A stretch of DNA of 4,303 nucleotides, from NCBI RefSeq assembly GCF_003334355.1, contig NZ_QOWP01000069.1, one strand, 5' to 3'. A program made the position numbers and the translations under genes. Under the pieces are notes generated by a model. That model saw only the letters and a program-made list of their open reading frames with translations, did not search any database and was not told the origin of the DNA. How positions within the stretch are numbered: the stretch's first letter is position 1; every line of letters starts with the position of its first letter. Source of the stretch: Escherichia coli. Its GTDB lineage: Bacteria > Pseudomonadota > Gammaproteobacteria > Enterobacterales > Enterobacteriaceae. Of this stretch, positions 693 to 2,117 are shown piece after piece.

Positions 693-768
<76 letters not shown>

Positions 769-835
769 ATCAAGTAGCGCGCATTCTATGGAGACATGCG
801 AGTTCATGCAACTAAAAAATTGCATAATTTGTTTT
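769..835 (-). promoter_or_regulatory. Promoter of the thrU-tyrU-glyT-thrT-tufB operon: -35 TTGCAT (806..811), 17-bp spacer, -10 TAGAAT (783..788), GCGCGC discriminator (777..782), AT-rich UP-like tract upstream
   Basis: Minus-strand reading is ...aaattatgcaattttttagTTGCATgaactcgcatgtctccaTAGAATgcgcgctacttgat followed directly by thrU. The hexamers are near-consensus with optimal 17-bp spacing. The GC-rich discriminator is typical of stringently controlled stable-RNA promoters. The A/T-rich sequence at about 812..835 is in the position of an UP element. Confidence 0.7.
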
Positions 836-1129
836 ATTGGTCACATTTTATGCGACACGATGAAGAAACAGCCGAACGGAGGGCAGATTAGCACACTTTT
901 TCAACATCATTGTGCTCAACAATGCGCTCCTGCTAAACCATAATTCTTTTTATCAGATGGAATATCTGTCACATTGCTTTTCAACGATAGCTTCCTGGCA
1001 GAGATTTTTTCTTATTATTCCTCCCCATCTGGTGTTACCCTCCTGCCCATTAACCCATTCAACAGAACTGTGACGCGCCATGGCAAATATCGCTTTGCCG
1101 ATAGAGCTATGACCGCCAGAAACATGCTT

Positions 1130-2080
1130 ATGAGTATAAAAGAGCAAACGTTAATGACGCCTTACCTACAGTTTGACCGCAACCAGTGGGCAGCTCTGCG
1201 TGATTCCGTACCTATGACGTTATCGGAAGATGAGATCGCCCGTCTCAAAGGTATTAATGAAGATCTCTCGTTAGAAGAAGTTGCCGAGATCTATTTACCT
1301 TTGTCACGTTTGCTGAACTTCTATATAAGCTCGAATCTGCGCCGTCAGGCAGTTCTGGAACAGTTTCTTGGTACTAACGGGCAACGCATTCCTTACATTA
1401 TCAGTATTGCTGGCAGTGTCGCGGTGGGGAAAAGTACAACCGCCCGTGTATTGCAGGCGCTATTAAGCCGTTGGCCGGAACATCGTCGTGTTGAACTGAT
1501 CACTACAGATGGCTTCCTTCACCCTAATCAGGTTCTGAAAGAACGTGGTCTGATGAAGAAGAAAGGCTTCCCGGAATCGTATGATATGCATCGCCTGGTG
1601 AAGTTTGTTTCCGATCTCAAATCCGGCGTGCCAAACGTTACAGCCCCTGTTTACTCGCATCTTATTTATGATGTGATCCCGGATGGAGATAAAACGGTTG
1701 TTCAGCCTGATATTTTAATTCTTGAAGGGTTAAATGTCTTACAGAGCGGGATGGATTATCCACACGACCCACATCATGTATTTGTTTCTGATTTTGTCGA
1801 TTTTTCGATATATGTTGATGCACCGGAAGACTTACTTCAGACGTGGTATATCAACCGTTTTCTGAAATTCCGCGAAGGGGCTTTTACCGACCCGGATTCC
1901 TATTTTCATAACTACGCGAAATTAACTAAAGAAGAAGCGATTAAGACTGCCATGACATTGTGGAAAGAGATCAACTGGCTGAACTTAAAGCAAAATATTC
2001 TACCTACTCGTGAGCGCGCCAGTTTAATCCTGACGAAAAGTGCTAATCATGCGGTAGAAGAGGTCAGACTACGCAAATAA
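1130..2080 (+). CDS. coaA: Pantothenate kinase (type I CoaA), 316 aa
   Basis: The ORF 974..2080 contains the CoaA sequence from [20 protein letters not shown]... to ...[12 protein letters not shown], with the Walker A P-loop GSVAVGKST. The recalled CoaA N-terminus MSIKEQ corresponds to the ATG at 1130, which is Met53 of the six-frame ORF. The 52 upstream in-frame codons are not preceded by any SD and are taken as untranslated leader. Confidence 0.92.
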
Positions 2081-2086
2081 TTTGCA

Positions 2087-2117
2087 GGGGAGCGAATACT
2101 CCCCTTTCTTATTTTTC
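2087..2117. terminator. Intrinsic terminator hairpin between the convergent coaA and birA genes (stem GGGGAG 2087..2092 / CTCCCC 2099..2104, loop CGAATA, then T-rich tract 2105..2117 on the plus strand)
   Basis: The sequence gcaGGGGAGcgaataCTCCCCtttcttatttttctg sits 7 nt after the coaA stop codon. The T-tract follows on the plus strand, so it terminates coaA. The other flank on the minus strand is only moderately U-rich, so termination of birA is likely weaker. The hairpin and T-tract overlap the birA stop codon at 2109..2111. Confidence 0.6.

Follow-up and report, generated by a model that had tools for sequence, protein, structure and literature searches.

The closest described relatives of the thrU(tufB) promoter of Escherichia coli belong to the stable RNA promoter class, and the mechanistic steps ascribed to thrU follow the rrnB P1 and tyrT paradigm. 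The core of rrnB P1 consists of TTGTCA and TATAAT separated by a 16-bp spacer, and its FIS sites are located at -71, -102 and -143. For the thrU promoter itself, FIS bound the natural thrU-87 site (10.9 bits) in surface plasmon resonance (Shultzaberger et al., 2007; PMC2018646); for this site, that paper gives Bosch et al. (1990) as the source. A contribution of FIS to the growth-rate-dependent control of thrU is stated by Husnain and Thomas (2008; PMC2885671), who cite Emilsson and Nilsson (1995). Activation of thrU(tufB) by FIS-induced bending is attributed to Verbeek et al. (1991) in a citation in PMC7408454, and the work of Mizushima-Sugano and Kaziro (1985) on tufB operon sequences in stringent control is cited for G+C-rich discriminators by Dorman (2019; PMC6639932). 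FIS, growth-rate and stringent control of the thrU promoter are all stated or cited in published papers and, therefore, both the element and its regulation were already known.

The promoter described below is this long-known, FIS-activated, stringently controlled promoter of thrU-tyrU-glyT-thrT-tufB, whose growth-rate and stringent control are known from the literature citations given above. In E. coli K-12, this promoter is entered in RegulonDB/EcoCyc as thrUp and was the subject of work by the Bosch/Nilsson and Kaziro groups; locus and sequence are identical, and nothing differs between that promoter and ours, which share the start at -7 from thrU, both the -35 and -10 boxes and a spacer of 17 bp. 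We are nearly certain that positions 776-905, read on the minus strand, hold the sigma-70 promoter of this operon together with its upstream activating region, a member of the known stable RNA promoter class, and that coaA is transcribed from a separate, weak, predicted extended -10 promoter whose start, at 1049, is 274 bp away on the other strand.

The window, that is, the whole stretch of 4,303 bases that was analyzed, is E. coli chromosomal DNA with 100% identity to many complete genomes and was found in 5,426 of the 5,426 genomes searched. The gene order, rrfB-murB-birA-coaA/thrU-tufB, is reverse-complemented relative to MG1655, and an MG1655 coordinate equals 4,176,156 minus the window coordinate. 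The minus strand contains thrU, the tRNA-Thr(UGU) gene that opens the operon (693..768, 5' end at 768; detected by ARAGORN, by the Rfam tRNA model at 73.8 bits and in RefSeq), followed by tyrU (600-684), glyT (409-483) and thrT (327-402), each detected by ARAGORN and Rfam, and by the start of tufB. The coding sequence of coaA, a type I pantothenate kinase of 316 amino acids, occupies 1130..2080 on the plus strand in the RefSeq annotation. Farther to the right, birA and murB are again on the minus strand, as is the terminal part of the rrnB 5S rRNA gene.

The gene model was corrected, with coaA beginning at 1130 rather than 974. Position 974 is merely the TTG that opens the longest open frame, and it was rejected as the coaA start given that it is 5' of the mRNA start at 1049 and that indels disrupt its frame outside Escherichia, in other genera. 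Indels of many lengths interrupt the stretch 974-1129 there, and conservation across species resumes at about 1119, shortly before the start at 1130. Since coaA starts at 1130 and not at 974, the thrU-coaA spacer is 769-1129, or 361 bp, a length that supersedes the roughly 200 bp that had earlier been placed between the thrU promoter and coaA. No Rfam family matched in this spacer (E up to 1), and Term-seq contained no 3' end in it.

Two published 5'-end maps place the thrU start at window position 775, exactly the start (about 775) that the earlier note had predicted from its reading of the region as a stable-RNA-type promoter of the thrU-tufB operon. Mapping of 5' ends by 454 sequencing detected a thrU 5' end at -7 with 17 reads, flagged as Known, with identical boxes (ttttTAGTTGCATgaac and tctcCATAGAATgcgc), a 17-bp spacer and a distance of 0 nt from the database start (Mendoza-Vargas et al., 2009, Table S1; PMC2760140). 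For b3976-b3980, SMRT-Cappable-seq detected capped, full-length transcripts that begin at 4175380 (0-based) and end at 4177187, their start being supported by 483 and 654 reads (Yan et al., 2018, Supplementary Data 1; PMC6131387). The start column of that data set is 0-based because its coaA 3' end, 4174045, is the Term-seq position 4174046 minus one; therefore, the thrU start is 4175381, which is window position 775, an A. These transcripts show that the output of the thrU promoter runs through the four tRNAs and tufB. The thrU 3' end had a Term-seq score about 500-fold that of the coaA 3' end, consistent with a strong thrU promoter, and capped start reads numbered 483-654 for thrU vs. 56 for coaA. 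The TSS table of Kim et al. (2012) had no entry for coaA or thrU.

All of the proposed elements of the thrU promoter, TTGCAT, 17 bp, TAGAAT, GCGCGC and an A/T-rich tract, were present to the base on the minus strand at the positions originally assigned to them, and with the start at 775, the G+C-rich discriminator, the A/T-rich upstream tract and the FIS-like sites described below, the assignment to the stable RNA type was borne out. The sigma-70 hexamers, 17 bp apart, are directly upstream of the mapped start of an operon that opens with four tRNAs. The leader, ACTTGAT (769..775), extends for 7 nt from A(775) to the 5' end of the mature tRNA as defined by the 5'-end maps. Between +1 and the -10 hexamer is a G+C-rich, 7-nt discriminator, GCGCGCT, containing the GCGC motif (776..782); past GCGCGC (782-777), the minus strand reads the eight bases TACTTGAT and then thrU. 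The -10 hexamer, TAGAAT (783..788), matches the consensus at five of six positions and was also predicted in Table S1 of Mendoza-Vargas et al. (2009). It is separated by the 17-nt spacer GAACTCGCATGTCTCCA (789..805) from the -35 hexamer, TTGCAT (806..811), which matches TTGACA at three of six positions with TTG kept. A tract resembling an UP element (812..834) follows, in which -59..-38 reads AAACAAATTATGCAATTTTTTA; the 22 nt immediately 5' of the -35 hexamer are 82% A+T vs. 53% for the window as a whole, and the tract agrees with the UP consensus at 7 of its 14 specified positions.

The hexamers had been called near-consensus, and this is true only of the -10 hexamer (5/6) given that the -35 hexamer is a 3/6 match, that the promoter was absent from the output of a consensus sigma-70 scan of the window and that the hexamers by themselves occur at chance level. 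A relaxed scan (TTGnnn, a spacing of 16-18 bp and a -10 match of at least 5/6), with dinucleotide shuffles as the control, yielded two sites in the window compared to 1.96 in the shuffles. The composite of the hexamers, a 6/6 G+C discriminator and at least 18 A/T among the 22 upstream positions was found in 0.3% of the shuffles.

Conservation of the promoter was evaluated among Enterobacteriaceae with a search anchored on the coaA kinase, which gave 80 loci at one genome per species. In 64 of the 80, coaA was preceded by a divergent thrU at a distance of 316-1091 bp, and these 64 species were aligned. The -10 hexamer as TA(G/A)AAT was present in 64 of 64 species, and the discriminator, including its GCGCGC, and the leader TACTTGAT were invariant across the alignment. 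GTTGCAT was invariant in 63 of the 64 species, and ATGCAATTTTTTAG within the A/T-rich tract was conserved across genera. The spacer between the hexamers was constant in length and variable in sequence, with an identity to E. coli of about 0.75 vs. 0.96-1.0 in the flanking hexamers. Fixed hexamers, discriminator and leader with a drifting spacer sequence are, as judged from the alignment, the classic footprint of a working promoter.

A scan for FIS sites at about 810..900, which the earlier note had proposed, was run by scoring each 15-mer against the degenerate consensus G-N2-Y-R-W5-Y-R-N2-C (maximum score of 17), a crude measure rather than a calibrated matrix. The three best scores in the E. 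coli spacer were for predicted sites whose centers, 846, 866 and 898, are all inside that range. Site I, GCATAAAATGTGACC on the minus strand (839..853), is centered on 846 (-71) and scored 16/17; a predicted Fis site overlapping 834-857, and thus site I, is also given in Table S4 of Mendoza-Vargas et al. (2009; PMC2760140). Site II (859..873; score of 14/17) is centered on 866, or -91, the position used in Escherichia and Citrobacter, and site III, GTTGAAAAAGTGTGC on the minus strand (891..905; score of 15/17), on 898, or -123. Conservation was assessed as a score of at least 13/17 at a given distance from each species' own start. Among the 64 species, every one reached this score at -71 (100%), and the share was 91% for -123, 59% for -102 and 34% for -91, compared to a background rate of 3.4% over -40..-200. 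The FIS-like sites are, thus, upstream of the core promoter and positionally conserved, with the proximal one at -71. The -102 site replaces the -91 site in most genera other than Escherichia and Citrobacter. The offsets from -71 (20, 31 and 52 bp) are close to whole helical turns, which places the sites on roughly the same helical face. The sequence of site III drifts while the G...C frame and the A/T center are kept, a pattern that selection on FIS binding would produce.

Comparison with the described promoters shows both shared and divergent features. Like rrnB P1, the thrU promoter has a G+C-rich discriminator with GCGC and a longer than usual distance between the -10 hexamer and +1, an A/T-rich tract upstream of the -35 hexamer, and a proximal site at -71 (FIS-like in thrU) with a further one at -102 in most genera. 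The cores differ (TTGTCA/16/TATAAT in rrnB P1 and TTGCAT/17/TAGAAT in thrU), and the distal FIS-like site of thrU is at -123 whereas the distal FIS site of rrnB P1 is at -143. Unlike rrnB P1, thrU has only a partial match (7/14) to the UP consensus, and thrU is a single promoter whereas rrnB P1 is part of a P1-P2 tandem. Because the thrU spacer is 17 bp and that of rrn P1 is 16 bp, the kinetic analogy between them is one that we infer. The tyrT promoter (tRNA-Tyr) is in the same regulatory class as thrU and likewise serves a tRNA operon and has a G+C-rich discriminator and an upstream, FIS-binding activating sequence, although the sequence and the arrangement of the FIS sites differ (discriminator literature: PMC6639932).

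Transcription begins at A(775), 7 nt before the mature tRNA-Thr, and continues through the four tRNAs and tufB. By analogy with this class, the A/T-rich tract at -38..-59 may act as an UP element that is contacted by the alpha C-terminal domains. FIS bound at -71 would recruit RNA polymerase as it does at rrnB P1, which would tie promoter output to the phase and rate of growth. The weak -35 hexamer and the G+C-rich discriminator would be expected to give short-lived open complexes, and such unstable complexes would be inhibited by ppGpp/DksA during amino acid starvation and by low concentrations of the initiating NTP. RNase P would presumably remove the 7-nt leader.

The coaA gene appears to have a promoter of its own. 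In SMRT-Cappable-seq, a single coaA transcript was detected, which spans 4174045-4175107 on the reverse strand; its start had 56 reads (PMC6131387). The start at 4175107 is thus window position 1049, an A, and gives a leader of 81 nt and an mRNA of 1,062 nt. The mRNA ends at an intrinsic terminator (2086-2105), and the Term-seq 3' end at 4174046, window position 2110, agrees with the SMRT-Cappable-seq end. Directly 5' of the capped end is a conserved, unannotated plus-strand block (1004..1048), the putative coaA promoter. Within the block, a T-tract contains a poor -35-like TTATTA (1012-1017) with an 18-bp spacer, and TGtTACCCT (1033-1041) is a predicted extended -10 element, followed by CCTGCCC (1042-1048) as a G+C-rich discriminator. 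The sequence of the island is GATTTTTTCTTATTATTCC-nnnn-CATCTGGTGTTA(C/A)CCTCCTGCCC-A(+1). The candidate element has TG at -15/-14, one base before a hexamer that keeps A(-11) and T(-7), is 7 nt upstream of the start and is found as TGTTA(C/A)CCT in all aligned genera. Compared to E. coli, 50 non-Escherichia species had an identity of 0.96-0.99 at 1009-1018 and 1029-1048 and only 0.14-0.5 across 869-1000. The block has no annotation in E. coli genomes and is single-copy in 5,421 genomes, which ruled out a repeated or mobile element.

We interpreted the coaA promoter, from its sequence, as a weak sigma-70 promoter of the extended -10 type located about 75 bp past the interval 769-973. It shares with extended -10 (TGn) sigma-70 promoters the TG one base 5' of TAnnnT and the poor -35, and differs from them in that its -10 is only a 3/6 match and that -23..-1 is invariant across genera, beyond the usual contact demands of RNA polymerase. 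In 1992, Song and Jackowski reportedly described the coaA promoter as poorly similar to the consensus. A weak coaA promoter had been anticipated, and the weak extended -10 element fits that expectation; its location does not, since the start (1049) and the promoter (1004-1048) are outside 769-973, where it had been sought. The only plus-strand match inside that interval, TCAACA-17-CATAAT (916-944), was rejected as the coaA promoter: it is unconserved, varies even within Escherichia, and has no transcript listed from it. It is part of a poorly conserved central spacer, where conservation is at its lowest (906..1000; identity of 0.14-0.48 in 50 non-Escherichia species), in which this sigma-70-like match is probably not functional, and the SMRT-Cappable-seq supplement (PMC6131387) contained no transcript starting within 906..1000. 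Other sigma factors for 1004-1048 were rejected by eye against their consensus sequences; for sigma-54, GG and GC are two bases too far apart, and for sigma-32, sigma-E and sigma-28, there are only partial matches, in variable positions.

The starts at 775 and 1049 are on opposite strands and, at 274 bp apart, are probably too distant for their regulatory sites to overlap or be shared, and about 130-150 bp of unconserved DNA lies between the two conserved islands, so that the earlier description of the promoters as back-to-back was overstated. A shared bidirectional control region, in which the FIS/UP region of thrU also regulates coaA from a promoter inside 769-973, would be compatible with the divergent arrangement of coaA and thrU in every species examined, with the sigma-70-like match at 916-944 and with an in vitro NtrC gSELEX peak in the coaA/thrU spacer (PMC8743547), which indicates that proteins other than FIS can bind there. 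We consider this arrangement improbable given that the capped coaA end is at 1049 and the coding sequence at 1130, that the FIS-like sites are at -151 to -203 from the coaA start and that the intervening DNA has an identity of 0.14-0.5. A fixed architecture shared by the two promoters would hardly fit the threefold range of spacer lengths, an ORF of 195 codons is inserted in the Kosakonia spacer, and the 916-944 match is not kept even among Escherichia. Start distance, conservation, spacer length and the positions of the FIS-like sites gave no evidence of shared control.

The other two alternatives concern the elements themselves, and both draw on a weak minus-strand 5' end at window position 1070, or -302 from thrU, with 2 reads (Mendoza-Vargas et al., 2009; PMC2760140). 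Were the thrU hexamers fortuitous and the tRNA-tufB operon transcribed mainly from elsewhere, this second 5' end could be an upstream start, the minor SMRT-Cappable-seq starts within tyrU and thrT (31 and 37 reads; PMC6131387) could mark internal promoters, and the chance frequency of the hexamers alone would be explained. Both 5'-end data sets already contradict this, with 17 reads at 775 vs. 2 in one and 483-654 vs. 31-37 in the other; in addition, the core elements are invariant in 64 species while the spacer between them drifts, and the FIS-like pattern is phased to 775, which leaves fortuitous hexamers with almost no probability. The 5' end at 1070 would also include the block at 1004-1048, which on the minus strand reads AGGAGGgtaacaccagATG and could be taken as the translation initiation region of a small minus-strand ORF (AGGAGG, 10 nt, ATG) instead of the coaA promoter. 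The ATG is, however, ATT in Klebsiella, Raoultella and Pseudescherichia and TTG in Intestinirhabdus, and in Enterobacter the frame is shifted by an indel of 1 nt, past which the nucleotides are still conserved. With the start codon variable, the frame shifted and the nucleotides kept, the constraint on the block is therefore not coding. No gene is annotated at the block in MG1655 or in other RefSeq genomes, and a capped plus-strand 5' end is found exactly at its edge; we regard the small ORF as very improbable, and the block is treated here as the coaA promoter.

The 81-nt 5' UTR of coaA (1049..1129), as defined by SMRT-Cappable-seq, contains a predicted hairpin at about 1075-1116. Leaders from other species were anchored on the invariant core and transcription start and folded as single sequences (58 distinct sequences). 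They ranged from 60 to 116 nt and all were predicted to fold a hairpin from about +24 to 10-20 nt before the AUG. The stems differed in sequence, being GCG.CCAUGGC/GCUAUG..CGC in E. coli, CAUUGC/GCAAUG in Citrobacter and GCGUGCCAUU/AAUGGCACGC in Pseudescherichia. Folding energies were below those of dinucleotide shuffles, with a mean z of -1.18 across the 58 distinct sequences and -2.86 for E. coli, which is a comparison of energies and not a covariation test; they are suggestive of a conserved hairpin. A premature terminator in the leader was rejected, as Term-seq contained no 3' end between 4175000 and 4175399. Upstream of the coaA promoter, many genera have an inverted repeat, GTGATGC-N10-12-GCATCAC, followed by a T-run, which is degenerate in E. 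coli. The repeat follows the inserted plus-strand ORF in Kosakonia and could be the terminator of that ORF.

The thrU promoter is a textbook example from the translation apparatus, with mapping and other studies going back to the 1980s, and our analysis, which re-identified it, adds only the cross-species footprint and the window positions of the FIS-like sites. The footprint is a clean example of a promoter whose elements are fixed while the spacer drifts and whose FIS-like sites are kept by position and pattern rather than by sequence. Further interest may be found in the question of why a weak coaA promoter ranks among the most conserved non-coding DNA of the locus. The known level at which CoA synthesis is regulated is feedback inhibition of the enzyme. 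A near-invariant core promoter (-45..-1) with a G+C-rich discriminator, together with a predicted hairpin kept in every genus despite changes in its sequence and length, might point to a control of pantothenate kinase, at transcription or translation, that has yet to be described, such as sensitivity to ppGpp/DksA or a dedicated factor, a possibility that we consider rather unlikely. If true, CoA synthesis would be regulated beyond the feedback inhibition of the enzyme.

Transcript ends recorded for the thrU-tyrU-glyT-thrT-tufB operon, whose main start lies at 775 (-), included several minor 5' ends on the minus strand. A second, weak 5' end was listed as 'New' with 2 reads at -302 from thrU, which corresponds to window position 1070 (-) (Mendoza-Vargas Table S1). 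This entry is internally inconsistent because the -35 box assigned to it, ATGTTGAAA (window 901-909), is downstream of that 5' end. SMRT-Cappable-seq detected minor minus-strand capped starts inside tyrU (about 646, MG1655 4175509; 31 reads), covering glyT-thrT-tufB, and inside thrT (about 365, MG1655 4175790; 37 reads), covering tufB. Such starts may mark promoters within the operon, or they may be artefacts caused by the abundance of tRNA. A site at MG1655 4175959 (window about 197, minus strand), 15 nt into tufB, had a very large read difference (77702 vs 344) in a further supplementary table from Adams et al. (2021), which we think is the comparison with and without bicyclomycin. A Term-seq 3' end was also given at 4176021. 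The pattern may reflect regulated termination near the beginning of tufB.

The coaA/thrU spacer was listed as an NtrC target by in-vitro genomic SELEX, with a peak intensity of 63% (PMC8743547). The peak, at U00096.2 coordinate 4,173,336, maps to window position 843 or thereabouts, on the A/T-rich region of FIS site I, the FIS-like 15-mer at 839-853, and no obvious NtrC or sigma-54 motif was found there.

The spacer is traversed by two long open frames, namely a 64-codon ORF on the minus strand (953-1147) and a 52-codon upstream extension of coaA on the plus strand that begins at the TTG at 974 (974-1129). MG1655 is without a locus tag b3975 between coaA (b3974) and thrU (b3976), and STM4141 is annotated in the rrnB-tufB interval of Salmonella. 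The two frames, b3975 and STM4141 have the look of gene predictions that were spurious or have been withdrawn. A shorter frame is opened on the minus strand of the coaA promoter block (window 1045-982), where AGGAGG is followed after 10 nt by the ATG of a 15-codon ORF. As a gene, this ORF is probably fortuitous since neither its start codon, which is ATT or TTG in some genera, nor its frame is conserved.

The coaA leader varied from 60 to 116 nt across genera and contained a hairpin (window 1075-1116, plus strand, in E. coli) that was present in every genus with differing sequence and length. Some changes in this hairpin appeared compensatory, for example between E. coli (CATGGC/GCTATG) and Citrobacter (CATTGC/GCAATG). 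The folding z-score of the leader averaged -1.18 among 58 sequences and was -2.86 in E. coli, and Rfam contained no family matching the hairpin. Conservation at the nucleotide level was found for ACATGCTTATGAG around the coaA start (window 1119-1135, plus strand), which includes a second in-frame ATG at 1124, two codons upstream of the start; no Shine-Dalgarno sequence was recognisable near the start in this interval. At the other end of the gene, the plus-strand intrinsic terminator of coaA (window 2086-2110; stem 2086-2105) adjoins the point at 2109 where the convergent birA gene has its stop codon, and its 3' end at 2110, detected by Term-seq, was marked as lying antisense to birA.

An inverted repeat with a T-run after it immediately precedes the coaA promoter (window 961-1010, plus strand). 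In many genera the repeat takes the form GTGATGC-N10-12-GCATCAC, as in the Kosakonia locus L022 (about 2290-2330 in its own coordinates), where an inserted 195-codon plus-strand ORF (1691-2278) precedes it; the E. coli version is degenerate (ATCTGTCA..TGGCAGAGAT). The repeat may act as a terminator or insulator, or it may be a palindrome to which a protein binds.

The coaA core promoter (window 1004-1048, plus strand) had an identity of 0.96-0.99 at 1009-1018 and 1029-1048 among 50 non-Escherichia Enterobacteriaceae. Despite this near-invariance, it matched the sigma-70 consensus poorly; its -10 is of the extended type, with TG, and its discriminator, CCTGCCC, is G+C-rich. This degree of conservation is higher than a weak constitutive promoter would appear to require.
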